Shown here: positions 3,689 to 24,304 of the stretch, piece by piece | Layout: every line of letters starts with the position of its first letter | Position numbering within the stretch: position 1 is the first letter of the stretch | NCBI GenBank assembly: GCA_040757655.1 | Contig: JBFLWV010000017.1 | Span: 1-40,323, forward strand | DNA length: 40,323 nucleotides | Origin: Patescibacteria group bacterium | GTDB taxonomy: Bacteria; Patescibacteriota; Patescibacteriia; 2-02-FULL-49-11 | Reading direction: 5' to 3' | Notes under the pieces: generated by a model | The model's database searches: none | What the model was told of the DNA's origin: nothing | The model's input: only the letters and a program-made list of their open reading frames with translations | Translations under genes and position numbers: made by a program

Positions 3689-3816
3689 ATCAAATTTCAA
3701 TAAGCACAACCCTTAAAATCACTAGACCGATCCCAATCTTGTTTAGCAAAGATAAATCTTCTTTGAAGTATAAAACGCCCGTCAGGGCGATAACAACTAA
3801 ATTCAAATGGGAGTTC

Positions 3817-5812: not shown

Positions 5813-5820
5813 ATTTTTCT

Positions 5821-5846
5821 GGATTCCGCATCAAGTGCGGAATGAC
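5821..5846. repeat. REP-like palindrome
   Basis: GGATTCCGCATCAAGTGCGGAATGAC, the same GAATGAC-ended family as 2717-2813 and 12187-12277. Confidence 0.7.
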
Positions 5847-5854
5847 AATTGGCC

Positions 5855-7279: not shown

Positions 7280-8686
7280 CTATTGTTTCTGCTGACGTTT
7301 CAAAAATTGTTCACCCACACTTCTCACTGGTTCTGCACCCATGGTAATGAGAAACGCGTGGGGAGGAATCTGGGCAAGAATTTTGACTACCATGATGTCA
7401 TTTTGTCCATTCGTTACGAAGGGATGATATGCGTTCAGAGCCTTTATCAAGGCGGTGGATGACGACACTCCTCCACCTTCCTCATCGGTCATTTTCACGG
7501 GACGAAGGATCACATGGTCTGCATGAGTAAATGCCTGTGCAAGCTCATCCTGCATCAGGTCAGTGCGCTTCCTGCCATAACTTTGAAATATACACCAAAG
7601 AGGTCTCTCTGGGTACTGTTCTTTTACCCCTTTTAGCACCGTCTTGATGGTGGAGGGGAAATCTGCAGCATCATCCATCACGATAATGTCGTTTACCATT
7701 CCCACTATGCTCACATGTCGTTTTGCACCGTGATAGGAAGAGAGCACGTGACGGGCGATATCAAATGAAATCCCAAAAGAGTGGGCTACGGCGATCACTG
7801 CTAATGCATTCGTGAGTTGATATTCTCCAGGAAGCTCCATCTGGTATTCCTCGTCACGCTCGCCTTTTCTTATATGCACCACGAATGAGGTACGTCCTTG
7901 GAGAGTCTGTACGTTCAGCGCGCGGACGTCAACGCCTTCCCGTCGTCCAAACCACAGAATGCGTTTTTTCACATTCCGTAATGCTGCAGCGATATATTCA
8001 TCGTCGCCATTCGCGATTACAATGCCGCCTGACTTCACATTCTGCGCAAAGGCGTGGTAAGCATTAATAATGTTCTGCATCTCTCCAAAATAATCCAAAT
8101 GATCTGGCTCAATATTAAGAAACAGCGCACAGGAAGGTGTGAGGGAAAGAAAATGCCTTCTATTTTCATCCGCTTCTGTGATAAAGTAATCCCCCAACCC
8201 TTTCCGTACATTACGTTTCCACACATCCACATCAGTCTTCACGACAACGCTTGGATCGTATCCGGCCTTTTCGAGCAACGTGCCGATATACGCCGCGACC
8301 GTTGTTTTTCCGTGACAACCGGCGACGGCAATAGTCCTCCGAACGGTACTCATGTATCCTATGCATTCAAAGGGGCTCACCAGGGGGATTCCCCAATACT
8401 TCGCATAACGGACATCAGGATGAAGCAACGCGCGCGGCGACACCACTGCCATATCCACATTCACCGACAAGAACGGTTGTTGCGTGCTGATGTAACAAGG
8501 TATCCCCTCTTGCACGAGGCGCGTCGTGCGCTCATTGCCTCTCACTTCTGAGCCGCTTACCTTTTTCCCCCAATGGTGCAAACATTCAGCAATCGCCGCA
8601 CATAACTCATCACCGATGCCAATACAATATATATGCGACACTTTGGAGAAATCAACTTGTTTTTTATGCATACGCTTCACGTACAT
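7280..8686 (-). CDS. murC: MurC-like Mur ligase with degenerate motifs
   Basis: GCHGKTT P-loop, EADE and NIEPDHLDYF are present. Canonical GIGGxGMS appears as GIGDELCA and DDYAHHP as DDAADFP. Confidence 0.7.
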   Translation of the reverse strand: MYVKRMHKKQVDFSKVSHIYCIGIGDELCAAIAECLHHWGKKVSGSEVRGNERTTRLVQEGIPCYISTQQPFLSVNVDMAVVSPRALLHPDVRYAKYWGIPLVSPFECIGYMSTVRRTIAVAGCHGKTTVAAYIGTLLEKAGYDPSVVVKTDVDVWKRNVRKGLGDYFITEADENRRHFLSLTPSCALFLNIEPDHLDYFGEMQNIINAYHAFAQNVKSGGIVIANGDDEYIAAALRNVKKRILWFGRREGVDVRALNVQTLQGRTSFVVHIRKGERDEEYQMELPGEYQLTNALAVIAVAHSFGISFDIARHVLSSYHGAKRHVSIVGMVNDIIVMDDAADFPSTIKTVLKGVKEQYPERPLWCIFQSYGRKRTDLMQDELAQAFTHADHVILRPVKMTDEEGGGVSSSTALIKALNAYHPFVTNGQNDIMVVKILAQIPPHAFLITMGAEPVRSVGEQFLKRQQKQ

Positions 8687-9761
8687 TAAGATATGGGGTA
8701 CTGCGGTGTATAAGTGAAATTACTGACGAACCATCATCAACAGGAATAGTGCGAGAAAGAGAAGCTGCGAGAGTGTTGCGAGTACGTTCATCTGCTAATA
8801 ATTCCGTAATAGTGGCAATGAGGAGAGAAGGGGTGAGACTCTGTTGAGGTAAAATAAGCGCCGCGCCTGCCTTCGCAAGGAGGGCAGCATTATGCTCTTG
8901 TGGAGAATGAGGAAGAGGAACAAGGATGAGCGGGACACTCATCGCGGCCGCCTCGGCGATCGTTCCCATGCCTGCGCGACTCACAATGATGTCTGCGGCC
9001 GCGTACGCATACACAAGGTCATCGCCAAAAAAAGGCTGCGCGCAGTATCCTGGTAATCGTGGAGCTTGTTGATCAATTGGTGTTCCTGTGCTGTGGAGAA
9101 CATTCACCATAGGAAGGAGGTGATGGATTGATTCATTGATGAGGGTATTCAATATCCTTGCGCCAATGCCTCCGCCAAGGACTAGCATAGTGGGTTTTGA
9201 AACGAATGAGAATCGGCGTAGAGCATCCTTCTTCATCCTCTCCTTTTGGCGTGCCAATGCAACGATGGCGTTCCGTACGGGACACGCAATGGGAGTAAAA
9301 TGGAGAGGGAACGAAAATAACGACCCAAACTGCGAAAGGAAGGGAAGGATGAGGCGATTCGCTAAGCCCAACTGAACGTCAAGCTGCAGTCCAATGGTGG
9401 GGATGCGAAGCAGCCATGCGGCCCACACGAGCGGCACAGAAATGAAACTACCTGAGGAGACTATCGCAGCCGGCCTTTTCCGCGACAGCAAGGAGAGCGC
9501 CTGGATGAATCCGAATGTTATGAATAGCGGATCAATCATCGTTCTCCAGGAGAGATAACGACGAAACTTCCCTCCCCACAGGGGGGTGTAGGGAATCGCA
9601 CGGGCGCGGAGCACATTTCGTTCAGGTCCACGAAATGTGCCGCACCACCACACCTCATTGGTGTATCTTTTTTTGAATTTTTCTATGACACTCATCAACG
9701 GCATGACCGACCCTAGCGTACCGCCCCCTGAAAAAATAACAGGTTTTAAAGCCATACACAT
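8664..9761 (-). CDS. murG: Undecaprenyl-PP-MurNAc-peptide GlcNAc transferase
   Basis: SGGGTLGS, LGGGIGA, SRAGMGTIAE and QEHNA; follows ftsW. Confidence 0.9.
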   Translation of the reverse strand: MCMALKPVIFSGGGTLGSVMPLMSVIEKFKKRYTNEVWWCGTFRGPERNVLRARAIPYTPLWGGKFRRYLSWRTMIDPLFITFGFIQALSLLSRKRPAAIVSSGSFISVPLVWAAWLLRIPTIGLQLDVQLGLANRLILPFLSQFGSLFSFPLHFTPIACPVRNAIVALARQKERMKKDALRRFSFVSKPTMLVLGGGIGARILNTLINESIHHLLPMVNVLHSTGTPIDQQAPRLPGYCAQPFFGDDLVYAYAAADIIVSRAGMGTIAEAAAMSVPLILVPLPHSPQEHNAALLAKAGAALILPQQSLTPSLLIATITELLADERTRNTLAASLSRTIPVDDGSSVISLIHRSTPYLNVREAYA

Positions 9762-9764
9762 GTA

Positions 9765-10880
9765 CTACGCCTTTATGACGGTGGTGCGGGATATGCTCAA
9801 GCAGACTCCGAGAGCTCCCAAGAGACTCAAAATCGCACTTCCCCCAAAACTCACCAAAGGTAAAGGGAGGCCGGTGAGGGGAATGAGCCCCATCATCGCG
9901 GCCATGTTCACAAATGATTGCACACCAATCCAGAGAATCACCCCTACGACAAATAAGCGGCTAAACTCATCTGGCGCTCTCGCGGCGATGCGAAACAAGC
10001 GATGGAGGAGGACACTGAGAACTACGATGAATCCTCCAGAAAGCATAAACCCCCCTTCTTCTCCCATCACCGCGAAGATCGAATCGCCCGCAGATTCTGG
10101 TAGATAGCTAAATTTTTGGCGTGATTTGCCCAATCCTAACCCCCACCAGCCACCAGAACCAATAGCGATCATGGATTGATGGAGGTGATACCCCACCCCG
10201 CGAGGATCCTTTTCTGGACTCAAGAACACTGCGATCCTTTCTGTGCGGTAGGGAGAGATGATGATGGCTGCAGCAAAAAGAATAGACGCGATACAAAAAA
10301 GAGAAACCAAGTGGCTTATTCTTGCGCCCGCAGCATAGTACACGCCAAGTGACATGAGAATGAGAATCGCCGCCGTTCCCGGATCTGGCTGCAGGAGCAC
10401 CAAGAGGGTCAACGCCCCTAAAAGGGTGAGAAATGGCAAGAGACCAAAGAGGGTGCTGCGGAGATGTGCCTTGCGTTTCTTGAACCACACACTGAGGTAG
10501 AGCAAAAAAGTAAGTTTGGCAATTTCCGATGGTTGCAGGGTGCTTACCCCCACATCGATCCAGCTTCTTGCGTTATGGATGCTCACCCCGATGCCTGGAA
10601 TGAACACGCATACGAGTAAAAGCATCGTGACCGCAAAGGCAGGAAATGCAATTTTTTGCCATACGGAAGGAGGGAACCTCGCACTTACGAACATCGCGAT
10701 TAACCCGATAGCGACATTAAGCAGTTGCTGTTTGGTGAAGTAGTAGGTATCACCAAAACGCTCAAAACCTAGTACATTAGATGCAGAGGTGAGCATCACA
10801 AGGCCGAAGGAGGTCAATAGAAGGACTAAACCGAGAAGCTTATAATCAATCGAATGAGCTGTAGAAATTCCTGAACGCAT
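9765..10880 (-). CDS. ftsW: SEDS peptidoglycan polymerase FtsW
   Basis: ARSWI, LQPSEIAK, LQPDPGT, AIGSGG.WGLGLG.S.QKF.YLPE and GLPLPLVSFGGS. Start placed at ATG 10880 because the longer ORF reads through a repeat. Confidence 0.93.
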   Translation of the reverse strand: MRSGISTAHSIDYKLLGLVLLLTSFGLVMLTSASNVLGFERFGDTYYFTKQQLLNVAIGLIAMFVSARFPPSVWQKIAFPAFAVTMLLLVCVFIPGIGVSIHNARSWIDVGVSTLQPSEIAKLTFLLYLSVWFKKRKAHLRSTLFGLLPFLTLLGALTLLVLLQPDPGTAAILILMSLGVYYAAGARISHLVSLFCIASILFAAAIIISPYRTERIAVFLSPEKDPRGVGYHLHQSMIAIGSGGWWGLGLGKSRQKFSYLPESAGDSIFAVMGEEGGFMLSGGFIVVLSVLLHRLFRIAARAPDEFSRLFVVGVILWIGVQSFVNMAAMMGLIPLTGLPLPLVSFGGSAILSLLGALGVCLSISRTTVIKA

Positions 10881-10893
10881 AATAACCTTTTCT

Positions 10894-10991
10894 AAATCCC
10901 AAATCCCAATGTCCAATATCCAATAAAATCCCAATACTTCAATGACCAATTTTAGGATTTTGGATTTGGAACTTTATTGGAAATTGGGATT
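10894..10991. repeat. Inverted heptamer-period repeat block
   Basis: aaatccc aaatccc aatgtcc aatatcc..., followed by a complementary arm tttggat ttggaac..tggaaat tgggatt. Confidence 0.8.
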
Positions 10992-10993
10992 TC

Positions 10994-12121
10994 TCAATGA
11001 AGTGCTATCCATAATCCCACCATTACCATAATCGCGTTAATAACCCACGCGCGCATAACAATTTTTTCTTCGCTCCAACCGCGCGCTTCAAAATGATGGT
11101 GGAGGGGCGAGAGGGCGAAAATCCTTCGGTTTAAAATCCTTCTGCCGAACGATTGGATGATGACGCTGAATAAATCTAAGAAAAAGACAAAACCGAATAA
11201 AGGAAGCACGAGTATTCTGTTTTGCGCAATAGCCATAACCGCCAGCAACGCCCCTAACCCTAATGAGCCGACATCACCCATCTGAAATCGCGCAGGTTTA
11301 ATATTAAAGTACGTGTACGTAAGTAAACTTCCAATAGCCATGGCGTTCAAGATCGCAAAAAAAATATTTCCCTGAATCCAGGCAAGGATCAGCAGGCCCC
11401 CAAATGCCGTTATCAACGTACCGCCAGCCAGTCCGTCCAAACCATCCGCCACATTGACTGCGTTTGCCGTCGCCATGACGGTAAGAATGATAAAAGGAAC
11501 GAGTAAAATCCCTAATGCCAACTCTCCATTCCACGGAATCCATATTGCCCGCCATTCTGGGCCGAGTTTCACGTAAATCCACCACGCGGTCATCGCACCG
11601 GCGAGAAATTGGAATAAAATTTTCTCGTGTGCCTGGATGCCCTTGCCGGGGTACGATCCTAAATGAAAGAAAAAACGCTTATACGCCACCCAAGGAAGGC
11701 TCACAAGGTAATAAAGACGCATCCACCAATACCGGTGGACACGAGTCAGCTTCACCACGCGCTCAAACGAACGCATCGACCGGCGGCTGCCAAAAATATT
11801 GAGCACGTCGTCAATGCCGCCCAACGCGCTGGAGAGCAACATCACGCCGATTGGCACCCAGGTAAATCGCTGATTCCAATTAAACGCGATGCTCAACACT
11901 GCTACGGTTACAATCACGAGCAGGCCGCCCATGATAGGCGTCCCACGTTTTGTCTCGCGACCGGGCAGGGGTAAGGCAAACACGTGATCACTGGTGCGCA
12001 GAATTTTCCAGCGGTACAATGCCGTCGTGAGCAGCGGCGCCCAGGCGAATGTAAAAACGCAGGCGAGGATAAGAAAACCAAGACTGGTAATGATAATTGA
12101 CAAATTCAACATGACATTCAA
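10994..12121 (-). CDS. mraY: Phospho-MurNAc-pentapeptide transferase
   Basis: KRGTPIMGG, GGIDD, NAVNVADGLDGL, QMGDVGSLGLG and PLHHHFEARGWSE. Confidence 0.95.
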   Translation of the reverse strand: MNVMLNLSIIITSLGFLILACVFTFAWAPLLTTALYRWKILRTSDHVFALPLPGRETKRGTPIMGGLLVIVTVAVLSIAFNWNQRFTWVPIGVMLLSSALGGIDDVLNIFGSRRSMRSFERVVKLTRVHRYWWMRLYYLVSLPWVAYKRFFFHLGSYPGKGIQAHEKILFQFLAGAMTAWWIYVKLGPEWRAIWIPWNGELALGILLVPFIILTVMATANAVNVADGLDGLAGGTLITAFGGLLILAWIQGNIFFAILNAMAIGSLLTYTYFNIKPARFQMGDVGSLGLGALLAVMAIAQNRILVLPLFGFVFFLDLFSVIIQSFGRRILNRRIFALSPLHHHFEARGWSEEKIVMRAWVINAIMVMVGLWIALH

Positions 12122-12327
12122 AAACTCAAAACTTAGAACTTAAATCTCAAAGCCATATCTCAAATCTTAAAACTGACCGCCACAGGGTCATTCCGAGCTC
12201 TGTCGAGGAATCTCCAACGAATGTTGGCTCACATACGTGAGAGATTTTTCCCCTCGCCAAGACGGAGTCAGAATGACGTGTGGATATTGGGTTTTGAGTT
12301 GTGGTTTTGAGTTTTGATATTTGAGTT
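12120..12327. repeat. Composite repeat: heptamer arms flanking a REP-like GTCATTCCG...GAATGAC element (12187-12277)
   Basis: Left arm aaaactc aaaactt agaactt aaatctc; right arm gttttgagtt..gttttga gttttga tatttga; internal palindromic pair. Confidence 0.75.
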
Positions 12328-13078
12328 ACATAAGCACTTTAAGTCTAAAAATCCCATTCCTTTCTCTCTCCTCCCTCCACCCTTCCTGTGTCGGCTGCCT
12401 TCTCTGCCAAATGAATTGCCATTCCTGATCGGCAAGATCGGCAGTAGGATTCGTTATAACTATCTTCTCCCGCCTGAATCCAGAGTCCAGATCGAAAAAT
12501 CGGCCAGTGGAATGAACAAATGTAAACGCTGTCAAAATATTAGCATCATTCCTTTCTGTTTTCTCAACTAATAAAACATGTTTGCCGCCGCGCGTGCGGA
12601 TAAGATCGCCCGGGGCAATATCAGCTAATGAGACGGCGGCACTCTGTGTCGGCGCAGTTAAGATGGATACGTCAATATTACTAAACGGTCGGAAGCGTAA
12701 TAATAATTTTCGCTTCAATGAATTGACGCCGCGCGCCAACACGTTTCCCAACGACTTGCCAGTTTTCTCACGTACACATGGATCTAAAGCATGTGCAACT
12801 AAACCAGAGCAGTCAATGCCGATATTCTCTTTTATCATAAACTTCCTCATCTCCTCTGCGGTCAACCGCCCAAAATCCAATCGCAATTGCAACGCCCGCA
12901 TCCTCACTTCTTCAATTATTTCTTCCGGCGAACCCTTGCCGGAATCTACTGCCGCTGCTGCCCGCTGCCGTTTGCCAGAGTTATAATAAGGACATACCAC
13001 ATATCGCCCTTGGCCGAAATCGAGAGCTTCATAAGCGCGGATTATCTTCTGACAGCATGTGGGCAAAGTGGAAATCAT
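12326..13078 (-). CDS. NlpC/P60 (C40)-like cysteine peptidase
   Basis: GIDCSGLV (catalytic Cys) and PGDLI....KHVLLV (His). Start placed at ATG 13078 because the ORF-track extension is repeat-derived. Confidence 0.7.
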   Translation of the reverse strand: MISTLPTCCQKIIRAYEALDFGQGRYVVCPYYNSGKRQRAAAAVDSGKGSPEEIIEEVRMRALQLRLDFGRLTAEEMRKFMIKENIGIDCSGLVAHALDPCVREKTGKSLGNVLARGVNSLKRKLLLRFRPFSNIDVSILTAPTQSAAVSLADIAPGDLIRTRGGKHVLLVEKTERNDANILTAFTFVHSTGRFFDLDSGFRREKIVITNPTADLADQEWQFIWQRRQPTQEGWREERERNGIFRLKVLM

Positions 13079-13080
13079 AA

Positions 13081-13193
13081 TTTTCAATTTCCAATTCTCA
13101 ATTTTCAATTAATGAATCAATGCTTCAATTTTCAAACGTTTGAAAATAGTCATTGGAAATTATTTGGAAATTGGAAATTGAACATTGAAAATT
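13081..13193. repeat. Inverted heptamer-period repeat block
   Basis: ttttcaa tttccaa ttctcaa ttttcaa ... central dyad TTTTCAAACGTTTGAAAA ... ttggaaa ttggaaa ttgaaca ttgaaaa. Confidence 0.85.
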
Positions 13194-13219
13194 TGGTACC
13201 TAACTTAGAGAGAAGACTA

Positions 13220-14608
13220 CTACCTAAGATTAGACCTAATCTTCGTCACAACATCTGATATATTCCCATGGAACGTGTCCACTATACCCTGTTTTGATTG
13301 AATTCTCAAGAGCTCACCACCGGGCGGCACGAATGTGTCCTTCCCTTCCGAAAACGCCAATACTTCCTCTTGCTCCGTTTCTAGAATACTCGTTGCCGAC
13401 GCGACAAAATGTAAACCAGAACCAGTCAAAATATACCTACCTGGTTGGATTTCTTGTTTCAACCTGACGGGAGACATTTCTGTATTGCGAAAAAAAACTT
13501 GAGAACCATTCAATTGTCCCGAAGGGACTCCATAGTTTTGAGTTTTGCCTGCCCCGTAGGGTCCGACGTCATGTCGGACTCCTACGGGGAGTTTTGACCC
13601 CGTACCAAAAGCTTCGCTTCGGTACGGGGCATGGTTTTGAACTAACGCTACGACATGCCAATCCATTATCGTAACATCATCTCCTCTCGCTCGCTGCAAC
13701 TGTGCTTCCAGACTTGCAGATGCTGGCTGACGAGCATTGATCTCAATGAGGTAGGCGGTATGGCTTGAGTTTCCGTCTGGTATAATAACGTCAATACCAA
13801 ATAAACCCTTCCATCCTTCCTGCATCATATATTCACCAATCTTGATAGCAATATTTTTCACTTTTTCATGCACATCTTCACTGACACTGCTCCAATCATT
13901 CCCCACGGTTGCACATGGATTGTTCGTAAGCGCTGAAATGCCAGTCATTTGTTCACTCGCCCGCCCCCACAGCACGCGCGTGCCTGCGATGCACGCATTC
14001 ATCGTAAAACTCTTCCCTTGGATATACTCCGAGACTTTTACCATTCGTTTTGAAAATTTGTTAACTTCATTCTTCCATTCGTGTGCGCCAAAAATGCGTT
14101 TTGTTCCGGATCCTGTATGACCAATATTATACTGGAGTACAAATCCATTTCCAAACTCACGTTGTAAATGATTATATTCAAATTGACCAACGGTACCAAC
14201 CGCGCTTTTTGGCGTGAGGGGTTCCAGAGAGTTATTTTTTTCTTCCCGTAGCCATGCATATTGAGTGATCTTGTTCTCGATTTTTTCTGCGAGATGTGCA
14301 GATGGATTTAACAATCGCCAACCCAATATTTCGCACTCTTGCTCAATCTGACGAGAATTTTTAAAGACAATGATATCTGATTGAGCATCTTTCGCGATGT
14401 GCTCAATACGTTCTTGCACTCCTTTGTTCCGCATCAAATCAAGAGTGGATAACGTTCCCTCTCCATTGACTACGAGAACGGAGGAAGTATATTTCTTCTG
14501 CAACGCTACTGCCAGCGGACTTGAATTTGTTATGACAAAGAGATCCTCCCTCGCTCCCAAGAGGCCTGCGGCGCGCTCTATATCTCGAGTTATGTAAAAT
14601 AGTGCCAT
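13220..14608 (-). CDS. ATP-grasp ligase of unknown substrate
   Basis: GHTGSGT loop, SEYIQG, GLFGIDVI and YLIEINAR (ExN metal-binding motif). Confidence 0.85.
   Translation of the reverse strand: MALFYITRDIERAAGLLGAREDLFVITNSSPLAVALQKKYTSSVLVVNGEGTLSTLDLMRNKGVQERIEHIAKDAQSDIIVFKNSRQIEQECEILGWRLLNPSAHLAEKIENKITQYAWLREEKNNSLEPLTPKSAVGTVGQFEYNHLQREFGNGFVLQYNIGHTGSGTKRIFGAHEWKNEVNKFSKRMVKVSEYIQGKSFTMNACIAGTRVLWGRASEQMTGISALTNNPCATVGNDWSSVSEDVHEKVKNIAIKIGEYMMQEGWKGLFGIDVIIPDGNSSHTAYLIEINARQPASASLEAQLQRARGDDVTIMDWHVVALVQNHAPYRSEAFGTGSKLPVGVRHDVGPYGAGKTQNYGVPSGQLNGSQVFFRNTEMSPVRLKQEIQPGRYILTGSGLHFVASATSILETEQEEVLAFSEGKDTFVPPGGELLRIQSKQGIVDTFHGNISDVVTKIRSNLR
13516..13629. repeat. Palindromic REP-like elements inserted in frame in the ATP-grasp gene
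   Basis: CCCCGTAGG-GTCCGAC-gtcat-GTCGGAC-t-CCTACGGGG (13552-13589), CCCCGTACC...GGTACGGGG (13598-13629) and GTCCCgaaGGGAC (13516-13528). Confidence 0.8.
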
Positions 14609-14609
14609 A

Positions 14610-15536
14610 CTACTTCCCGGTAAATATGAGTACCACAGGTTCCGCGATATGCCATCCTTTCCTTAACGCCTTCCGTAAGCCCGCCAGCGCCATTGCGTCT
14701 TCAGCCGATACCTCCTTCATTCCCGTCGATCGTTCAATCTGCAATCTGCAATCTGCAATTTCACTATCCCCCACTACCCACCCCCACCCTCCACTCTCCT
14801 TGATTGCCTGTACCACGTGTGCTTTACGATGCGCCACACGATCCACAATGGCAGATGCGAGAGATGTTTTCGTAGGCTCAAAATCGTGGTCAAACTCACC
14901 GGCAAGGGGATGGACTTTTGTAGTTTGTACGATATGCAATTTTGGATTGTGGATCCCGCGACTTGGCTCGAGACAAGCTTTGGATTTTGGATTTTCTTGA
15001 AATCCCTGCCATACACCTATCAGTAATGTCCCAGATGAAACTGCGCAAAAAATATAGCCAGCTGTTCCTTGCAGTTGTTCCTGTAGTTCACGTGACAATG
15101 TCCGATAACCCCCCAAGAAATCATCATCTGTTGAAGCACGCAATAACCGGATATGGCGCGTTTTGCTGTAACGTAGCGCGTCCCCTCTTGCCTTTATTGA
15201 CCACTGCACGGTGGTATTATCAGTCTTAAAACCTTCCAATCGCTTTTTTTTATCAAAAGGTAGATGGGGAGGAAAAAATATAGTAAGCCTTATTTCAGGA
15301 TGGTATCGTGCGTAATATGCAGCAGAAATGCCAAAATTACCAGAAGAACTTAAACAAAATTCTCTTTCACCTGTACCAATGACTGTATCGAGATAGGTGA
15401 ATAATGCCCTGTCCTTATGCGATCCAGAGGGATTGAGATCCTCTCTTTTAATGAATACATCTGAACAAAGCTCCTCGAGGGGAGAAATTTTAATGAGCGG
15501 TGTCGGATAGTATATGTGTTGCATGGTCAGAGGCAT
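14610..15536 (-). CDS. PLP-dependent fold-type II enzyme (threonine synthase/dehydratase-like)
   Basis: FIKREDLNPSGSHKDR (PLP Lys), SSSGNFG, AVSSGT and VLIFTG; only 1 bp from the ATP-grasp start. Confidence 0.85.
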   Translation of the reverse strand: MPLTMQHIYYPTPLIKISPLEELCSDVFIKREDLNPSGSHKDRALFTYLDTVIGTGEREFCLSSSGNFGISAAYYARYHPEIRLTIFFPPHLPFDKKKRLEGFKTDNTTVQWSIKARGDALRYSKTRHIRLLRASTDDDFLGGYRTLSRELQEQLQGTAGYIFCAVSSGTLLIGVWQGFQENPKSKACLEPSRGIHNPKLHIVQTTKVHPLAGEFDHDFEPTKTSLASAIVDRVAHRKAHVVQAIKESGGWGWVVGDSEIADCRLQIERSTGMKEVSAEDAMALAGLRKALRKGWHIAEPVVLIFTGK

Positions 15537-15578
15537 CTGCAGTATACTGGATAGGTATTAAATATTGATAATTTTCCT

Positions 15579-15749
15579 ATGGATTATTCTACTATCTGTC
15601 CAGAATGTAAAAATGAATTACATGTTGAGAGAAATTCTTTGGTGGAAAATGATGTGGTTGAATGCGACTATTGCGGCATGACTCTTGAGGTTACGGCAGT
15701 TGATCCGCAAGGATCATTTGAAACGCTCGTGGTGGAGGAAGAGAAATAA
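15579..15749 (+). CDS. LysW-like small acidic zinc-ribbon protein (56 aa, below the ORF-track cutoff)
   Basis: MDYSTICPECKNELHVERNSLVENDVVECDYCGMTLEVTAVDPQGSFETLVVEEEK has the LysW pattern CPEC..VECxxCGxxLEV..DP but ends in EEEK, not EDWGE. Confidence 0.8.
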   Translation: MDYSTICPECKNELHVERNSLVENDVVECDYCGMTLEVTAVDPQGSFETLVVEEEK

Positions 15750-15781
15750 TAAGAATCGAACTCAAATCTCAAAATGCAGGT

Positions 15782-15810
15782 ATGTCGTCCCGACGGAGTC
15801 GGGACGACAT
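15782..15810. terminator. Perfect 13-bp hairpin between convergent lysW-like and mpl-like genes, embedded in heptamer arms
   Basis: ATGTCGTCCCGAC-gga-GTCGGGACGACAT. It could be a terminator or a REP-type element. Confidence 0.5.
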
Positions 15811-15840
15811 CATTTTGATCTTTGACTTTTGATTTTTGCA

Positions 15841-17277
15841 TTAAGCCCTTGAGGATGATAAGGCTGTCAGTGTTTGCTCAATCATGCCTCTGAAACCATG
15901 GGAGCCCATGAATACTACTACATCGCCCGGTTGGGCGATTTTTGTAATGCGCGCAACGAGCGTGCCATCTTCTGGCTCATACATTACTCCTTTCGAGGAA
16001 GAAGATGTGCTTCCTCTTCCCGCCTGAATCACCGTGGCGAGCTTTACACCATCCATACGCTCCTCCTCATCTTTTCCTGTTTTGGCGATGGAGAGGCGTG
16101 GAATCATGACGACGTCAGCATCCCTAAAGGCATTCTGATACAGAGGCTCTGTTGAAGCAACTCTATTCCCCACATTTGGCTCAAAAACCGCAATGATTTT
16201 AGAGTGAGGGAAGTGCAGCCGCAATCCCTTGAGCGTGGTTGCTGCCTTGGCCGGTGAATGGGCAAAATCGTCAACCACTGTCACTTCCTGTATATTTCCT
16301 CGAACTTCCATTCGCCGCCTCACCCCTTTAAACGTTTCCACTGCTCGTAGAATGGCATCTGTGGGGATGCCGCAATAGCGCGCCAATCCAACTGCACCCG
16401 CGAAGTGATCAAGATTTAAGTCCCCTAACACAGAACAATGGCACGGTCCAATTGTTTCACCGCGCGCGCCGTGAAAGGTAAGCGTTACGCCGTTTTTGTC
16501 GCGTGCGAGTATTTCTAGTGACCAATCGGCATATCCCTCACCCCTCCGATTGTATGAGAGAACAGAAGCGCGCGCCTCCTCAAGAACCGTGCTCGTATGA
16601 GGACGCTCCATCGCAGCTACAATAAGCCCCTCAGGGGGAATACTACGGATGAGCATGTTAAACACCTTCAGATAACTCTCCTCGGTGGTGTATACATCTG
16701 CGTGATCCCACGCAGCGCCGGTGAGCAACACGTACTTCGGTCGATAATAGGAAAATTTCGGCACGAGATTCCACCGACTGCTGGGGTATTCGTCTCCCTC
16801 CACCACTGACCACTGGCTGTCGGCTATGCGGACGCCGTCCTGGAAATTACGCACCAGACCCCCCACCATATACGAGGGGCGCCTGTCAGCCATTTCCCAT
16901 ATCCAGGCAAGGAGCGCCGTGGTCAGTGTTTTCCCATACGTACCCGCCACGATAATTGATTCGTGTCGTATGAGAAATTGGGATAATATTTCAGGATAGG
17001 AATGGAAGGGTATGCCCCTCTCCCTCACCGCAACATATTCAGGGTTCGAGGTGCCAATATAATTTCCCACCACTACCAACTGAGGGTTCCCCATACGTTC
17101 TGGGTGAAACCCTACATAGAAATCGATCGCATTCTGTTTCAAATAATCTGACATGGGCGGGAAAATGCCTTTATCAGAACCAGTCACACGCCATCCCTGA
17201 TCCCGCAGCGCTTTTGCGAGCGGCGCCATGGCAGTGCCACATATTCCTATAAAATGAACATGCTTTCTTTCAATCAT
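15841..17277 (-). CDS. mpl: Mpl-like murein peptide ligase (MurC paralog)
   Basis: HFIGICGTAM, GSDKGIFPPMS, GTYGKT, EGDEY, DHADVY, GVRRRME, DDFAHSP and VFEP. Confidence 0.8.
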   Translation of the reverse strand: MIERKHVHFIGICGTAMAPLAKALRDQGWRVTGSDKGIFPPMSDYLKQNAIDFYVGFHPERMGNPQLVVVGNYIGTSNPEYVAVRERGIPFHSYPEILSQFLIRHESIIVAGTYGKTLTTALLAWIWEMADRRPSYMVGGLVRNFQDGVRIADSQWSVVEGDEYPSSRWNLVPKFSYYRPKYVLLTGAAWDHADVYTTEESYLKVFNMLIRSIPPEGLIVAAMERPHTSTVLEEARASVLSYNRRGEGYADWSLEILARDKNGVTLTFHGARGETIGPCHCSVLGDLNLDHFAGAVGLARYCGIPTDAILRAVETFKGVRRRMEVRGNIQEVTVVDDFAHSPAKAATTLKGLRLHFPHSKIIAVFEPNVGNRVASTEPLYQNAFRDADVVMIPRLSIAKTGKDEEERMDGVKLATVIQAGRGSTSSSSKGVMYEPEDGTLVARITKIAQPGDVVVFMGSHGFRGMIEQTLTALSSSRA

Positions 17278-17310
17278 AGTTAGTTTTTGTAAGAATTCCT
17301 TTCCCTTAGA

Positions 17311-17433
17311 TTTTCAAATCCAAATTTCAAAATCCAAATGTCAAATAAAATCTCAAGCTCAAATGTCCAATGTCAAATTTGACATTGAGATTTTGGATTT
17401 TATTTGAACTTTGAACTTTGGATTTGGGATTTT
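17311..17433. repeat. Inverted heptamer-period repeat block
   Basis: aaatcc aaatttc aaaatcc aaatgtc ... dyad AATGTCAAATTTGACATT ... tttgaac tttgaac tttggat ttgggat. Confidence 0.8.
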
Positions 17434-18089
17434 TTAGGCTTACCTGGTCGCCACTTCTCCCCATCCCACCACTCCACCCCCTTAAACTGAAACTTGTAGA
17501 GCGAGCGCTCATCCTGAATGCTTCCCAGATACACGTAGCTCATTTGTTTTTCCTGCGCCCACAGGATAGCTTTGAGCATCATTGCCATACCCAATGACGG
17601 AAGCGCGAACGCACGTGAACGTGTGGTATCATAAAAAGGATACGCGTAATGGAGCATGGGTGGGAGAGAGAAAGAAAGACAATATCCTATCGGACACTCG
17701 TCGTCTTTCCATTGATATAAAAAGACGCCGTTCATACTTGACGAAGACGAGGTGAATAATGTTTTCACCCTCTGAGCGCTCATGGCGCGAACGCCCGATT
17801 TGTTTCTATAGAAATCAACTGCCATCTTTCCCATGCTCCAATGGTAGCGCGGAAAAGGTAAAGAGACATGCTGAAGAGCGAGGGATGTATATTTCCTCAT
17901 AATGCGTCGATTCTCACTCGATAGTTGAAAAATTTCGCAGGGAACTCTCACTGAACGCACCTGCCTCATGATATGAGGCCCCAATCTCGTGAGGACATAA
18001 CCCTTGTCATAGTTCTGTGCGATACGTTCGTTCGACGGTTGACCAAGGCTCAGTTCTTTAAAATAATGATACAAAGAGTAGTCGGTCAT
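17400..18089 (-). CDS. ATE/Bpt-like aminoacyl-tRNA-dependent transferase (GNAT fold)
   Basis: SVRV...FQLSSENRRIMRK, YPFYD, SLGMAMML and YVYLGS..SLYK.QF resemble the ATE_C domain. Confidence 0.72.
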   Translation of the reverse strand: MTDYSLYHYFKELSLGQPSNERIAQNYDKGYVLTRLGPHIMRQVRSVRVPCEIFQLSSENRRIMRKYTSLALQHVSLPFPRYHWSMGKMAVDFYRNKSGVRAMSAQRVKTLFTSSSSSMNGVFLYQWKDDECPIGYCLSFSLPPMLHYAYPFYDTTRSRAFALPSLGMAMMLKAILWAQEKQMSYVYLGSIQDERSLYKFQFKGVEWWDGEKWRPGKPKKSQIQSSKFK

Positions 18090-18122: not shown

Positions 18123-18488
18123 TCATAGTGCAAACGTAGAAAGATAAATTGTAATCGCCAAGAGGAACCCGTTCATCACGCTGGTGAGGGTAAGTAAGGC
18201 CGCCGCAAGTCTTGGCTCATCCCGGTAGAGCATTCTCCCGATCCCACCATTGAAGAGGGTAAGGAAGGTGCCTGCCGCGGCAAACAGATACAAGTACCAA
18301 AAAGGGCCAATGAAATCAATGCCGAAATACACGGTGACATGGAGAGGGATCGGTTCGACTGACGGCTCAAAGGTGAAGTAGGAATACATCCAGGTAACCG
18401 TATTCAAAACTAATGAGAAGATCACATTCCAGAGCACCCATGGGATGCGAAAATATAGATCGTGACGTAATGTCGGAAAAAGTGGCAT
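18123..18488 (-). CDS. Small membrane protein, about 3 TM helices
   Basis: Hydrophobic segments flank IPLHVTVYFGIDFIG. ATG 18488 preferred because the longer start overlaps the pil promoter. Confidence 0.7.
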   Translation of the reverse strand: MPLFPTLRHDLYFRIPWVLWNVIFSLVLNTVTWMYSYFTFEPSVEPIPLHVTVYFGIDFIGPFWYLYLFAAAGTFLTLFNGGIGRMLYRDEPRLAAALLTLTSVMNGFLLAITIYLSTFAL

Positions 18489-18513
18489 AGTAAGTGCGCA
18501 AGAACATATTCTA

Positions 18514-18522
18514 TGGTATAAT
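18514..18522 (+). promoter_or_regulatory. Extended -10 promoter element for the pil operon
   Basis: TGGTATAAT (TGnTATAAT) upstream of pilB. Confidence 0.55.
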
Positions 18523-18552
18523 ATCTTTATAAGAACGTCCATACCAATCCCA

Positions 18553-18712: not shown

Positions 18713-20446
18713 ATGCCCCCTTCTCAATCGACAGATCTCCTTGAGGCAATCGTAAAGGGGAAAATTGCCTCAAAAAAAGAGCTGGATGTGGCAATAAAGG
18801 AAGCTCAAGCCACTCATAGAGCCGTAGAGCAAGTTTTGCTTGAGAAAAAATTAATAACCGAGGATCAGCTGGCTGAACTCAAGGCTGGACTTTTAGGATA
18901 TCCCTTTATTAAATTGAACACCCTCACCATCCGCAAAGATGTGCTGAATCTCATCCCAGAGCCGATTGCCTCTTCTCATCTCCTCGTCGCCTTTAGTCGC
19001 TCGGACACGAGCCTCAAAATCGCGACCCTGGATCCCGACGATCTTCAGACCTTTGAATTTATAAAGAAGCGCACGGGGCTTACTATAGAGATTTACCTCA
19101 CCACGCCAAGCGATATACGAGAAGTTTTGAAACAATACCACAAATCCTTGAAGGCGGAATTTGAGGAAATCACGAAGACCGAGATAAGTGGCGATGAAGA
19201 GCATGAAAAATTAAAAGAGCTCGCACAAGATCTCCCCATTATTCGTATTGTGGACACCTTACTGGAGTATGCCATTTTTGAAGGCGCGTCTGATATTCAC
19301 ATCGAACCTACTGAAAAAGAAGTGGTGGTGCGTTATCGTGTGGACGGAATCTTGCGCGACGTCATGACATTGCCCAAAAAAACCCAAGCGGGTATTGTCG
19401 CCCGCGTAAAAATTCTTGCCAACCTGAAGCTTGATGAGCACCGCTTACCGCAAGATGGGAGATTTAAAATTTGCACCAATGAGTACCGTATTTCATTCCG
19501 CGTTTCGGTCATTCCTGTGTTTGACGGGGAAAAAATAGTCTTGAGACTCCTCAACGAATCAGCACAGATTTTGACGCTTGAGCAACTTGGATTTTATGGA
19601 AACGCACTTCTCACAATCAAAACAAATATTGCAAAACCTCATGGCATGATTCTCGTTACCGGTCCCACTGGTTCCGGTAAAACCACGACGCTCTACACCA
19701 TACTCAATATCATTAACATGCCTACGGTTAATATCACCACGATTGAAGACCCCATAGAATATCGGATGCCACGGGTGAATCAGAGCCAAGTGAACCCTAA
19801 AATTGGTTATACCTTCGCGGCGGGTTTGAGAGCATTTTTACGCCAAGATCCTAATGTGATTATGGTGGGTGAAATACGTGATTCTGAAACGGCCGATATC
19901 GCAGTCAATGCAGCGATGACAGGTCACTTGGTGCTCTCTACCCTTCACACCAACGATGCAGCCACCGCATTTCCAAGACTCCAGGATATGCAAGTCGCAT
20001 CGTTTCTCATTGCTTCAACGGTGAACGTCGTTATTGCTCAAAGGCTTACTCGCAAAATTTGTCAAAACTGCAAACAGCCGGTGAAACTCGAACGTGATAC
20101 CGTGCAAGAACTCAGCCATCAATTTGACCTTCCTGCCATTATGGACATCTTCGTGAAAGAAAAGCTCGTTGAGACACCAAAGGAACGTTTTGAATCTCTT
20201 GAATTTTGGAAAGGAAAAGGGTGTAAGCAATGTAATCAAGAGGGATATAAGGGACGTGTCGGCATCTATGAAGTGCTTTCGATGTCGCCTGCAGTGGCTG
20301 ATTTGATTTTAAAACGAGCTTCAGCAGAAGAAATAAACACCTGCGCAAAAAAAGAAGGTATGTATACCATGGTCCACGATGGATTCATGAAAGCGAAGCA
20401 AGGAATTACCACTATTGAGGAACTTCTTCGCGTCACGAAAGACTAA
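18713..20446 (+). CDS. pilB: Type IV pilus assembly ATPase (GspE/PilB)
   Basis: ASDIHIEP, RLPQDGR, GPTGSGKTTT, TIEDPIEY, LRQDPNVIMVGEIRD, LSTLHTN and two CxxC pairs. Confidence 0.95.
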   Translation: MPPSQSTDLLEAIVKGKIASKKELDVAIKEAQATHRAVEQVLLEKKLITEDQLAELKAGLLGYPFIKLNTLTIRKDVLNLIPEPIASSHLLVAFSRSDTSLKIATLDPDDLQTFEFIKKRTGLTIEIYLTTPSDIREVLKQYHKSLKAEFEEITKTEISGDEEHEKLKELAQDLPIIRIVDTLLEYAIFEGASDIHIEPTEKEVVVRYRVDGILRDVMTLPKKTQAGIVARVKILANLKLDEHRLPQDGRFKICTNEYRISFRVSVIPVFDGEKIVLRLLNESAQILTLEQLGFYGNALLTIKTNIAKPHGMILVTGPTGSGKTTTLYTILNIINMPTVNITTIEDPIEYRMPRVNQSQVNPKIGYTFAAGLRAFLRQDPNVIMVGEIRDSETADIAVNAAMTGHLVLSTLHTNDAATAFPRLQDMQVASFLIASTVNVVIAQRLTRKICQNCKQPVKLERDTVQELSHQFDLPAIMDIFVKEKLVETPKERFESLEFWKGKGCKQCNQEGYKGRVGIYEVLSMSPAVADLILKRASAEEINTCAKKEGMYTMVHDGFMKAKQGITTIEELLRVTKD

Positions 20447-20491
20447 AACGGTTCCCGCAAAGTTTATTCATACTTCGCACCAAGAGGCCCC

Positions 20492-21589
20492 ATGCCCTCT
20501 CTCGATCAAAAGTTACTCTCGCCACATCCTCTTTCGTGGTTTACGCGCCACCGCCATATCTCGCTCACCGAGAAGATTTTTTTTATGCAAAATTTACAGG
20601 TCATGGTACGCACTGGCCTCTCTCTTGCGATGGCATTACGGACACTCGCTGATCAATCAACCCATAGCCGCTTTAAATATGTGATCCGCAACATTTACGA
20701 ACAGGTCGAAAAGGGTACGCCGTTTGCACGTGCCCTCGCTGCGCATCCGAGCGTATTTCCTGATCTTACCGTGAGCATGATCGAAAGTGGAGAACTTTCA
20801 GGGAAGCTTGACGAGGTGCTCCAACACGTGACTGAACAGATGAAAAAAGACCACGAGCTCATCGCCAAAGTACGCGGTGCCATGCTCTATCCTTCCATCA
20901 TCATCATCGCCATGGTCAGTATTGGCACTGCGATGATGATATTTGTGATTCCACGGCTCATTGATGTCTTTGCAGAATTTAAAGCCACACTCCCCCTCCC
21001 GACCAGAATTCTCATCGCCACGAGTAACTTTACCACTCGCAACGGCCCCTTCGTGGTCCTCGGGTTCGTCGCGCTCATCGTGGCGCTACGCGCATTCTCA
21101 AAAACGACAGCCGGTACCCATATCGTGCATGCGCTCCTGTTACGGATGCCCATTTTCGGCGCCATCATACGGAAAATTAACTTAGCCCGCATAAGCCGCA
21201 CGTTCTCATCGCTTCTCACGACTGATATCCCTATCGTTCAATCTTCCCTCATTACGTCACGTACTATAAAAAATGTGTATTACCGCGAAGCGCTCCTCGA
21301 TCTCGCAGAACGGCTGAAAAAAGGTTCCCAAGTCCATGCGGTCTTTTCCTCTTACCCTCACCTTTTTCCCCCGGTCGTGAGCCAACTCACACGGGTAGGA
21401 GAAGAATCAGGTGCCCTTGACCATGTCCTTTTACAGCTCGCGCTTTTCTACGAAGAAGAGGTAGATCAAATAATGAAGAACCTCCCCTCCATCATAGAAC
21501 CGCTTCTCATCTTGATCCTGGGAGCAGGAGTTGGTGCGATGGCGGTGGCCATTATCATGCCGATGTATTCACTCACGCAGACGATATGA
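20492..21589 (+). CDS. pilC: Type IV pilus platform protein (GspF/PilC)
   Basis: GELSGKLD, AMLYP, VGEESGALD, IEP and IIMPMY. Confidence 0.95.
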   Translation: MPSLDQKLLSPHPLSWFTRHRHISLTEKIFFMQNLQVMVRTGLSLAMALRTLADQSTHSRFKYVIRNIYEQVEKGTPFARALAAHPSVFPDLTVSMIESGELSGKLDEVLQHVTEQMKKDHELIAKVRGAMLYPSIIIIAMVSIGTAMMIFVIPRLIDVFAEFKATLPLPTRILIATSNFTTRNGPFVVLGFVALIVALRAFSKTTAGTHIVHALLLRMPIFGAIIRKINLARISRTFSSLLTTDIPIVQSSLITSRTIKNVYYREALLDLAERLKKGSQVHAVFSSYPHLFPPVVSQLTRVGEESGALDHVLLQLALFYEEEVDQIMKNLPSIIEPLLILILGAGVGAMAVAIIMPMYSLTQTI

Positions 21590-23445: not shown

Positions 23446-23456
23446 ATCATACCTTC

Positions 23457-23650
23457 TATAGAGATGCACATTTAATATGATATTTCGCTGGCTCGTCGAT
23501 TTGCTACTGCGGAACTCGGCTGGCCTTCGGCCGCCGCCGCCAGGCCTATCAGACAGTGGCAAAGCCGGCCTGGCGGCTGCCTCAGACAGTCCTCGGGCGC
23601 AAATCGACTGCGCCAGCTCATTATCATACGTTTAAAGGATTTTATCTATA
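23457..23650. mobile_element. MITE-like or structured palindromic element between two pilin genes
   Basis: Ends TATAGA / TCTATA; nested inverted repeats gctggc.cgtcgatttgc / gcaaatcgac..gccagc and GCCGCCAGGCC / GGCCTGGCGGC; GGCC-TTC-GGCC hairpin. Confidence 0.6.
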
Positions 23651-24285: not shown

Positions 24286-24304
24286 ACATCGCTTTATCAT
24301 CTCC

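Follow-up and report, generated by a model that had tools for sequence, protein, structure and literature searches.

Genes of the locus

A stretch of 40,323 nucleotides from a Patescibacteria group bacterium (assembly GCA_040757655.1, contig JBFLWV010000017.1), hereafter the window, carries six genes upstream of the peptidoglycan gene mraY, and the role of this six-gene module is the subject of the present analysis. The window is contig C17 of genome G000, an assembly of 1.19 Mb in 70 contigs with an estimated completeness of 98.9%. The six products are a protein resembling aminoacyl-transfer RNA (tRNA)-protein transferases of the ATE/Bpt type (ATE-like), a ligase of the MurC/Mpl family (Mpl-like), a LysW-like Zn-ribbon protein, a fold-type II enzyme dependent on pyridoxal 5'-phosphate (PLP; PALP family), an ATP-grasp ligase, and a cytoplasmic cysteine peptidase or amidase of the NlpC/P60 fold, abbreviated as P60 (Table 1). 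An earlier reading, made from the sequence alone, had named all of these genes. Each was found as an open frame where this sequence-only reading had placed it, and every one of its six assignments was borne out. The layout that it had described is equally borne out by the coordinates: a single base (14609) separates the stop of the PALP gene from the start of the ATP-grasp gene, mraY, ftsW, murG and a murC-family gene follow downstream of the module on the same strand, and the LysW-like gene is transcribed divergently.

Table 1. Genes of the module and adjoining genes, with positions in the window
Gene or product	Length (aa)	Position	Strand	Basis or family
ATE/Bpt-like (aminoacyl-tRNA-protein-transferase-like) protein	229	17400-18089	-	PF04377 ATE_C
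MurC/Mpl-family ligase (Mpl-like)	478	15841-17277	-	three Mur-ligase domains
LysW-like Zn-ribbon protein, C-terminus VVEEEK	56	15579-15749	+	PF21344
Fold-type II PLP enzyme (PALP)	308	14610-15536	-	PF00291
ATP-grasp ligase	462	13220-14608	-	PF02655 ATP-grasp_3
Cytoplasmic NlpC/P60-fold cysteine peptidase/amidase (P60)	260	12326-13108	-	orthologue matches to hidden Markov models (HMMs) and predicted fold
mraY		10994-12121	-	PF00953
ftsW		9765-10949	-	Pfam match
murG		8664-9761	-	Pfam match
Second MurC-family ligase		7280-8686	-	murC model, 287.9 bits
Hydrophobic protein	139	18123-18542	-	no family match

Conservation of the cluster in Patescibacteria

Of 401 genomes in a sample of the phylum, 54 had a homologue of the ATP-grasp ligase, and two contexts emerged when 20 kb was fetched around 20 of these homologues. 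Nine genomes from two families of the window's class share the order ATP-grasp, P60, mraY, ATE-like, Mpl-like, LysW-like (on the opposite strand) and PALP; for G281, the PALP gene lies beyond the fetched piece and the LysW-like gene 600 bp past its end. The window's own gene order also occurs in some relatives (G053). In distant lineages the genes are arranged as mraY...P60-MurD-(LysW)-PALP-ATPgrasp-ftsW-murG-murC-murB, and the run from P60 through MurD, LysW-like (opposite strand), PALP and ATP-grasp to ftsW is kept in six of the seven distant-lineage loci.

A scan of a species collection, started from an alignment of nine ATP-grasp sequences, confirmed 357 relatives, and 80 loci were kept. 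These belong to other genomes and were taken with 7-kb flanks around the ATP-grasp gene, many of them meeting contig ends. P60 was found in 76 of the loci, mraY in 60, the ATE-like gene in 53, the Mpl-like gene in 48, the LysW-like gene in 41 and PALP in 38, counts which drop with distance from the ATP-grasp query and with contig ends. Nearly all loci follow the order ATPgrasp>P60>mraY>ATE>Mpl>LysW<PALP>. The LysW-like gene is in every case carried on the other strand, and mraY stands between P60 and the ATE-like gene in 53 of the 80. Such an arrangement is far beyond chance. The nearest relative, at 55% identity, shares its gene order with the window from pilB to murG and is titled Candidatus Uhrbacteria in its record; other locus titles are mostly Magasanikbacteria or Patescibacteria, with some Dojkabacteria. 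Many of the contigs numbered L054-L132 are titled 'uncultured Gammaproteobacteria' (third-party annotation records of metagenome-assembled genomes) and one 'Candidatus Udaeobacter', titles which, on contigs with a Patescibacteria-type module, are probably taxonomic mislabels. The suggestion of the sequence-only reading, a module of six genes linked to those for peptidoglycan precursors, is thus upheld as real and conserved, with homologues co-located with mur genes and the cluster kept beside mraY in hundreds of Patescibacteria genomes.

A separate set of ATP-grasp matches (L048-L052, from G008, G112, G367, G061 and G133; E about 1e-15) belongs to another system in unrelated clusters and was excluded from the module counts. 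Their surroundings hold ATPgrasp_ST, 7TM_transglut with PKD domains, a MATCAP-like peptidase, RimK-like ligases and glycosyltransferases. The existence of such distant paralogues lends some colour to a function outside peptidoglycan, in small-metabolite or protein modification, with the proximity to mraY being accidental. This is considered extremely improbable, as the linkage to mraY, MurD, the Mpl-like gene and ftsW is fixed across many families, the ATE-like and Mpl-like proteins can be fused to each other, and the distribution described below is complementary to that of MurD, MurI and MurC.

Two forms of the module

Module genomes were defined by an ATP-grasp homologue together with PALP in the cluster contexts, which gave 24 genomes out of the 74 tested overall (PALP is unseen in G281 and is a fragment at the locus edge in G047). 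Two forms could be distinguished, with the LysW-like protein, the PLP enzyme, the ATP-grasp ligase and NlpC/P60 as their common core. The LysW-like protein was detected in 23 of the 24 module genomes and in none of the 50 others (E below 1e-4).

In form I, which accounts for 11 of the 24 genomes, a MurD gene is located directly between P60 and the LysW-like gene. This MurD scores above its cut-off (236-257 bits), and a canonical MurC (351-455 bits) is present in 10 of the 11 genomes, no MurC match being obtained in G076 (93% complete). Form II comprises the window, nine genomes of families f2 and f7, G385 and G219; it has no MurD and carries the ATE-like and Mpl-like genes. The ATE-like protein was found in 12 of the 74 genomes, all of them with the module and all without MurD, and it was recovered neither from the 11 form-I genomes nor from the 50 genomes without the module. 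In two loci, the ATE-like and Mpl-like proteins are joined in a single polypeptide (L035, 688 aa; L072, 732 aa).

Loss of core enzymes in module genomes

Among the 25 genomes of the window's class, MurD (E <= 1e-30) was detected in none of the 10 with the module and in 13 of the 15 without it. MurC above its cut-off gave the same picture (0/10 vs 13/15, one of them split), and the family Asp_Glu_race (PF01177) was matched in 1/10 vs 12/15. Two of these module genomes are single-contig assemblies (G192, G308). Across all genomes, PF01177, to which glutamate racemase belongs, was matched in 2 of the 24 module genomes vs 30 of the 50 others, whereas alanine racemase (PF01168), used as a control, showed no bias (13/24 vs 26/50). 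The MurD tally takes in G154, which is flagged as unpublished and on which no result depends.

The Mpl-like ligase is the only MurC-family gene in all nine f2/f7 genomes (246-293 bits with the murC model), and MurE (284-354 bits) and a MurF-like ligase (210-290 bits) are kept in 5/5 tested. The genome of the window holds four Mur-ligase genes only, namely the two MurC-family genes of the window and MurE and MurF elsewhere; no MurD was found in it, the best TIGR01087 match (85.4 bits vs a cut-off of 212) falling on the murC gene. It also keeps Ddl, and its MurE is above cut-off. A whole-genome search of this 98.9% complete assembly returned neither PF01168 nor PF01177. Besides Ddl and MurF, the genome has two class-IV aminotransferases.

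The enzymes for positions 3-5 of the stem peptide are thus canonical and kept, those for positions 1-2 and for the supply of D-Glu are gone, and the complementary distribution of the module and the core enzymes is firm. Because the module is complementary to MurD, to the MurI-type racemase and, in one clade, to MurC, it reads as a replacement of the first two steps of stem-peptide synthesis and not as a tailoring device. The earlier proposal that it attaches an unusual or extra residue to the stem gives way, on the same grounds, to core replacement. We consider it quite probable that the module provides another way of carrying out the MurD and MurI (and MurC) steps, standing in for glutamate racemase and canonical MurD and, in Magasanikbacteria-like families, for MurC as well.

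A variant MurD in form I

Seven module-linked MurDs from four families were compared with 12 canonical Patescibacteria MurDs, using E. coli numbering. At the position of Ser415, the canonical enzymes have Ser (12/12) and the module-linked ones F, Y, N, R or G (7/7); at Asp182, D or E (12/12) is replaced by Asn (7/7); and the residue after Asp317 is S or T (12/12) in the former and L or I (7/7) in the latter. All 19 sequences retain Lys348, and the seven module-linked ones have T or S at the position of Thr321. In the MurD product complex, as presented in an excerpt of PMC9780078, Thr321 and Lys348 bind the alpha-carboxylate of D-Glu, and Ser415 and Phe422 its gamma-carboxylate. Since the Ser415 position has changed while Thr321 and Lys348 are maintained, the aligned residues firmly indicate that the module-linked MurD would retain its grip on the alpha-carboxylate and would have lost that on the gamma-carboxylate. 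An identification of the linked MurD with MurD2 was rejected, as Asn and Lys occupy the MurD2 determinant positions in 7/7 sequences.

Properties of the module proteins

The LysW-like protein scores 39 bits with PF21344 (cut-off 27) and 26.5 bits with TIGR01206, below the cut-off of 53.2. Four cysteines, E54 and K56 are invariant in 17/17 sequences, and the tails of 41 further copies all end in lysine (DEGK in 35, EEEK in 4, EEGK in 1 and ETEK in 1). Among longer proteins, one match of 187 aa was obtained, with no informative fusion. Prediction of a complex between the ATP-grasp ligase and the LysW-like protein gave 0.45, 0.05 and 0.01 in its runs, which weighs neither way. We propose that the protein is a carrier. 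The analogy drawn in the sequence-only reading, of a LysW carrier working with its ATP-grasp partner, is a loose one: the tail ends in Lys and not in Glu, and the matches listed for the ATP-grasp ligase include no LysX or RimK.

The ATE-like protein matches PF04377 ATE_C, a GNAT-like catalytic domain, with 28.2 bits (cut-off 25). It reaches at most 47.8 bits with the NCBIfam arginyltransferase models, whose cut-offs are 170-358, and no ATE_N domain was matched in the Pfam scan. N-terminal Asp and Glu residues are the acceptors of ATE and Bpt enzymes.

The Mpl-like ligase scores 273.1 bits with the murC model (cut-off 335), 266 bits with the mpl model TIGR01081 (cut-off 388.7) and 70.5 bits with murD. 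Its best solved relative is the Psychrobacter Mpl 3hn7, at 189 bits vs 159 for the best MurC. The family has EPN(T/V)GNR vs QPHxxSR of MurC and a conserved GSHGFRGMI tail; the window's protein carries DDFAHSP and EPNVGNR, in which Asn and Val replace His376 and Arg377, the L-Ala-binding residues of MurC. It aligns without a gap to the Mpl loop of 3hn7 (DEY...KF), where MurC needs a gap of seven residues, and residues R404-T407 of Mpl are unmatched in it. The residue numbers of 3hn7 fit the numbering of PMC3060825 after a 19-residue tag.

The P60 protein of the window has no match in Pfam or NCBIfam, and 10 of the 14 aligned orthologues match PF00877 NLPC_P60. In a VIA-align comparison of its AlphaFold2 (AF2) model (predicted local distance difference test, pLDDT, 86.6), all 21 rows with Z of at least 8 (Z 8-10.5) are NlpC/P60 D,L-endopeptidases, with MepS, CwlO, the gamma-D-Glu-L-diamino-acid endopeptidase 2evr and 3h41 at Z 9.7-10.5; Foldseek gave no match at E <= 0.001. 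The orthologue matches and the predicted fold together sustain the assignment to NlpC/P60 made from sequence. The catalytic triad is well kept (Cys100 in 14/14, His177 in 13/13 readable and His199 in 11/13 sequences), and no N-terminal hydrophobic signal sequence is apparent by eye.

The combination of such a peptidase with an Mpl-like ligase had led the sequence-only reading to consider salvage, with NlpC/P60 cutting and Mpl religating. Muropeptides of the host or the environment would be imported, trimmed by P60 to L-Ala-D-Glu and religated to UDP-N-acetylmuramic acid (UDP-MurNAc) by the Mpl-like ligase, making MurC, MurD and MurI dispensable. Patescibacteria depend on hosts, the ligase is indeed Mpl-like, the fold of P60 is matched by gamma-D-Glu endopeptidases of the recycling type, 3h41 among them, and the f2/f7 genomes miss MurC, MurD and MurI-type genes but keep MurE and MurF. 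However, P60 travels with the trio of ATP-grasp, PALP and LysW-like genes just as faithfully in genomes that have MurC and MurD and no Mpl-like gene, where it is found directly upstream of the variant MurD in six of seven loci, and in two loci it is fused to the ATP-grasp ligase, not to Mpl. Salvage moreover offers no role for the PLP enzyme, the carrier-like protein, the ATP-grasp ligase or the tRNA-type transferase, and the conserved cluster showed no gene for a peptide transporter. It is disfavoured here as very unlikely.

The ATP-grasp ligase matches PF02655 with 30.5 bits (cut-off 23.2), and the Mg/ATP-binding E-x-N motif (E289 and N291) is invariant in 21 sequences. The solved folds nearest to its AF2 model (pLDDT 86.4) are the L-amino-acid ligase BacD/YwfE, biotin carboxylase, PurD and PurK, with template modelling (TM) scores of about 0.55-0.59 and E of about 1e-16 for BacD, biotin carboxylase and PurD. 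In the ESM Atlas, it falls into clusters which are unnamed or called 'putative biotin carboxylase'. When solved structures were searched by sequence, no significant match was obtained for the ATP-grasp, ATE-like or P60 protein. The fusions of ATP-grasp with NlpC/P60 (L076, L085) suggest loading and unloading with a step between them. Two other identities were tried and rejected: that the ATP-grasp ligase is Ddl, as a bona fide Ddl is encoded elsewhere in the genome, and that the Mpl-like gene is the lineage's MurC with the ATP-grasp ligase replacing MurD, as the latter co-occurs with MurC and MurD in form I.

The likeness of the model to the dipeptide ligase BacD/YwfE bears on a further explanation, in which the ATP-grasp ligase makes a free dipeptide (e.g. 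L-Ala-D-Glu) for the Mpl-like ligase, the PLP enzyme is a racemase for free D-Glu or another D-amino acid, and the Zn-ribbon protein is a regulator or accessory. It would also accommodate the failure to detect either PF01177 or PF01168 in the genome of the window, and Mpl enzymes accept L-Ala-D-Glu at a low rate according to an excerpt of PMC3060825. Nevertheless, the ATP-grasp ligase is equally conserved in form-I genomes, which have MurC and MurD, and the loss of Ser415 in MurD, the fusion of ATP-grasp with P60 and the need for an ATE-like protein are left unexplained, while an invariant C-terminal E-x-K would be odd for a regulator. This explanation is rated as quite unlikely.

The PLP enzyme matches PF00291 with 141.8 bits. 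Invariant residues are K41 (GSHKDR), SSGN 64-67, K96, Q204 and R237, and the motif around the PLP-binding lysine, GS(H/F)KDR, is ThrC/CysK-like. The protein shows a weak likeness to the models of threonine synthase, serine dehydratase, CysM and SbnA, none of which reaches its cut-off.

That ThrC, CysM and SbnA are the nearest models leaves some room for the enzyme to build an amino acid by beta- or gamma-replacement, which the ATP-grasp ligase and the variant MurD or the Mpl-like ligase would incorporate. The module would then make an amino acid different from D-Glu, or a Glu with a permanent modification at gamma, and install it at position 2, giving a non-canonical peptidoglycan close to the 'unusual residue' idea of the earlier note. 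The absence of a MurI-type racemase and the rebuilt gamma-carboxylate pocket of the linked MurD (7/7) are in keeping with it. On the other hand, MurE normally needs a free gamma-carboxyl on residue 2, and a canonical MurE is found above cut-off in the genome of the window and in 5/5 relatives; the alpha-carboxylate binders of MurD are kept, and neither the invariant Lys tail nor the P60 fusion receives a clear role. We regard this alternative as unlikely.

A possible carrier-based route to L-Ala-D-Glu

The replacement of the MurD and MurI (and MurC) steps could be achieved through a carrier. This scheme was drawn because the ligase/amidase fusions, the need of the PLP enzyme for a free amine and the amine-bearing Lys end of the LysW-like protein call for a joint explanation. 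The ATP-grasp ligase, with ATP, would link L-Glu by its gamma-carboxyl to the C-terminal Lys, which is invariant, at the epsilon-amine of the latter, making the LysW-like protein a carboxyl-group carrier and the mirror image of LysW. The alpha-amine would remain free, which makes epimerisation of the tethered Glu to D-Glu by the fold-type II PLP enzyme feasible, and tethering could shield the free amino-acid pool from a racemising enzyme. The tethered D-Glu would resemble a gamma-D-Glu-diamino acid and would be extended at its alpha-amine.

In form I, this extension would be the addition of UDP-MurNAc-L-Ala by the MurD variant without a gamma-carboxylate pocket, an enzyme whose lost pocket would suit a gamma-substituted Glu. 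In form II, the ATE-like enzyme would place L-Ala from Ala-tRNA on the N-terminus of Glu, and the Mpl-like ligase would then join UDP-MurNAc to the resulting tripeptide mimic; the ancestral substrate of this ligase is L-Ala-gamma-D-Glu-diamino acid, which the loaded tail would imitate. Finally, the cytoplasmic NlpC/P60 would cut the gamma-D-Glu-Lys bond, and canonical MurE would take over.

The scheme as drawn, with Glu tethered to the carrier Lys, epimerised, extended and released, is plausible, and we would place it somewhat short of an even chance; which residue is tethered, the site of the tether, the order of the steps and the tRNA used are what we infer. In its full extent, the proposition that several classes of Patescibacteria build L-Ala-D-Glu on a Lys-tailed carrier mimicking the position-3 diamino acid, and that in one large clade an ATE-family transferase dependent on aminoacyl-tRNA and an Mpl-derived ligase entirely replace MurC and MurD, is put forward tentatively and with some doubt.

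Evidence against the proposed route

Several observations count against the replacement of core enzymes, against the carrier scheme, or against both. The genomes are related and the groups small, so that the counts overstate independence. Strong, full-length PF01177 matches occur in two module genomes (G281 and G122), where the proteins are suspected to be aspartate-racemase-like, and 20 of the 50 genomes without the module have no PF01177 match either. In the genome of the window, a 275-aa class-IV aminotransferase matches both branched-chain and D-amino-acid transaminase models and could be another route to D-Glu; with no alanine racemase in this genome, the PLP enzyme might serve a wider D-amino-acid supply. 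The same genome keeps a second MurC-family gene (288 bits vs the murC cut-off of 335), which has QSYGRKR and DDAADFP vs QPHxxSR and DDYAHHP in canonical MurC and has no counterpart in any of the nine f2/f7 genomes.

As regards the individual proteins, the Glu at position -3 of the LysW-like tail is almost invariant and could be a LysW-style gamma-carboxyl attachment site, a placing which would block the amine of the substrate and so clash with the PLP step. The nearest solved folds of the ATP-grasp ligase are free-substrate ligases, and LysX and RimK are missing from the fold matches listed. A C-terminal Nudix-box domain on the ATP-grasp ligase in nine loci (L037, L038, L097, L106, L107, L112, L113, L119, L120) hints that a nucleotide-linked compound is handled nearby, which the proposed route does not explain. 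The nearest relatives of the PLP enzyme are replacement or elimination enzymes (threonine synthase, serine dehydratase, cysteine synthase), and a glutamate racemase of fold type II is not known to us. Next to the MurD of L045 no P60 could be recognised, and in G053, which has the Mpl-like ligase, an ATE-like gene was not found with the query from this window. One canonical MurC of Patescibacteria (L046) has the Mpl-type loop as well, so that only the His/Arg change discriminates, and Psychrobacter Mpl uses L-Ala-D-Glu poorly, as stated in an excerpt of PMC3060825.

Comparison with known systems

The nearest known system in function is MurD2/MurL, to our knowledge the only bypass described. This pathway of Xanthomonas and relatives (Feng et al. 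2017, reviewed in PMC8788868) resembles the module in being a genome-encoded bypass of glutamate racemase for stem position 2, in having been spotted by the absence of murI and dat, with a variant MurD beside new partner genes, and in relying on a one-way, ATP-driven conversion from L to D, as proposed for the module. It differs in that it uses one unrelated epimerase, MurL, whose substrate is the UDP-linked dipeptide (PMC8788868), whereas the partners in the module are an ATP-grasp ligase, a PLP enzyme, a Zn-ribbon protein and NlpC/P60. The determinants of MurD2 are Glu197 and Arg358 (PMC8788868), in place of which the module-linked MurDs have Asn and Lys (7/7). Form II, furthermore, has no MurD.

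LysW ends in Glu (EDWGE), the gamma-carboxyl of which takes the amine of the substrate, and its partners are LysX/ArgX (RimK-type), LysZ, LysY, LysJ and LysK. As in the module, the Zn-ribbon protein is small and has an acidic C-terminus, and its gene accompanies those for an ATP-grasp ligase and for a hydrolase that serves release; an amino acid is modified while tethered, which is proposed for the module too. In contrast to LysW, the tail in the module reads [D/E]-E-[G/E]-K, the ATP-grasp ligase is of the BacD/biotin carboxylase/PurD type, the release enzyme is NlpC/P60 and not an M20 peptidase, and the tether would run through the carboxyl of the substrate and not through its amine. No member of the LysX/ArgX, LysZ, LysY, LysJ or LysK families was detected among the 18 window genes scanned.

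Mpl/YkfC recycling (PMC3060825) shares with the module a cytoplasmic NlpC/P60 resembling gamma-D-Glu-diamino-acid endopeptidases and a ligase nearest to Psychrobacter Mpl 3hn7, with the DEY...KF loop in common and without the L-Ala-binding His/Arg of MurC. The module ligase, however, is below the mpl cut-off, has an ATE-like transferase as its neighbour and at times as its fusion partner, and occurs where MurC and MurD are missing, for which reason it looks biosynthetic and not like a recycling side-route.

Two further families offer partial parallels. Fem/MurM/FemX and ATE1/Bpt are GNAT-like transferases which move an aminoacyl group from tRNA to an amine, and the preference of ATE/Bpt for N-terminal Asp or Glu fits a Glu acceptor. 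Fem enzymes build cross-bridges on the side chain of position 3, unlike the ATE-like protein, which is proposed for the L-Ala-D-Glu bond of the stem because its gene tracks the loss of MurD (and MurC); compared with ATE1/Bpt, the module protein shows the ATE_C half only. Glutathionylspermidine synthetase/amidase (Gsp) likewise fuses an ATP-dependent amide ligase to a papain-like amidase (CHAP/NlpC-P60 superfamily) which undoes the same kind of bond, and the Gsp amidase is a weaker structural match of the P60 model (3a30, Z 6.1; 2io7, Z 5.0). Substrates and domain order differ, and the resemblance is architectural only.

Judged by sequence features, the module lacks traits that define LysW (the terminal Glu and the partners), Mpl and MurC (the curated cut-offs) and ATE (the N-domain and the cut-offs), and there is a substantial chance that the mechanism is categorically new. 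The remark of the sequence-only reading that the combination is not a described pathway agrees with the literature searched, in which no published description of the gene combination was found, the amidoligase survey of Iyer et al. 2009 being outside this scope.

Significance for peptidoglycan synthesis

In bacterial cell-wall synthesis, the steps of MurC and MurD and a source of D-Glu are taken to be essential and almost universal, and they are seen as drug targets. A set of Patescibacteria lineages, including closed genomes, is without MurC, MurD and a D-Glu source and has fixed unrelated enzymes instead. If the proposed route is true, it would mark the first time that a step of murein precursor synthesis is templated by a carrier protein and the first time that one depends on tRNA, here in the stem peptide itself; its PLP enzyme would be the first glutamate epimerase of fold type II and would act on a tethered substrate. 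The route would also account for what looks like a gap in the pathway when the metabolism of these organisms is reconstructed from genomes, and would provide directly testable enzymes for a hard-to-culture group. As a warning, the capacity for peptidoglycan synthesis should not be scored by the presence of murC, murD and murI alone.

Neighbouring genes and other observations

The 139-aa hydrophobic protein next to the ATE-like gene has no match in the Pfam or NCBIfam scans and a homologue in only one of the 80 loci (L053, the nearest relative); its membership of the module is uncertain. On the other side of the cluster, immediately 3' of the murC-family gene and on the same strand, lie two polyamine-type genes (4706-7249, -). 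The first (5855-7249, -) belongs to the ornithine/arginine/diaminopimelate-decarboxylase family, with 182 bits for a speA-like N-part and 136 bits for lysA, all below cut-off, and the second (4706-5812, -) is deoxyhypusine-synthase-like (PF01916, 110 bits). Their position beside cell-wall genes might point to a link with polyamine-modified peptidoglycan or with lysine supply.

Elsewhere in the genome, Ddl is encoded by a frame of 811 aa (L133, G000:C14:17000-23000, open reading frame 1662-4097) which combines a Ddl part (310 bits) with a second Ddl-like ATP-grasp half; the preceding frame (367-1572, 401 aa) matches the ATP-grasp part of cyanophycin synthetase with 206 bits, below cut-off. A FemX/FemAB-like gene (9770-10771, -) adjoins murE (8261-9592, -) on contig C31 (L001), its product scoring 61.7 bits, below cut-off, with the UDP-MurNAc-pentapeptide-lysine alanyltransferase model, and the organism may therefore also build a tRNA-dependent cross-bridge. 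On contig C33 (L002), a gene for a NiFe-hydrogenase large subunit of the sulfhydrogenase type (10472-11782, +; 228 bits, below cut-off) is found a few kb from a block of rsmH, a penicillin-binding protein gene and murF. Within the window, a type IV pilus-like block (18713-25729, +) diverges from the module and encodes a PilB-type ATPase, a PilC-type platform protein and two proteins with N-terminal methylation motifs, one of which, of 619 aa, has CarboxypepD_reg domains.

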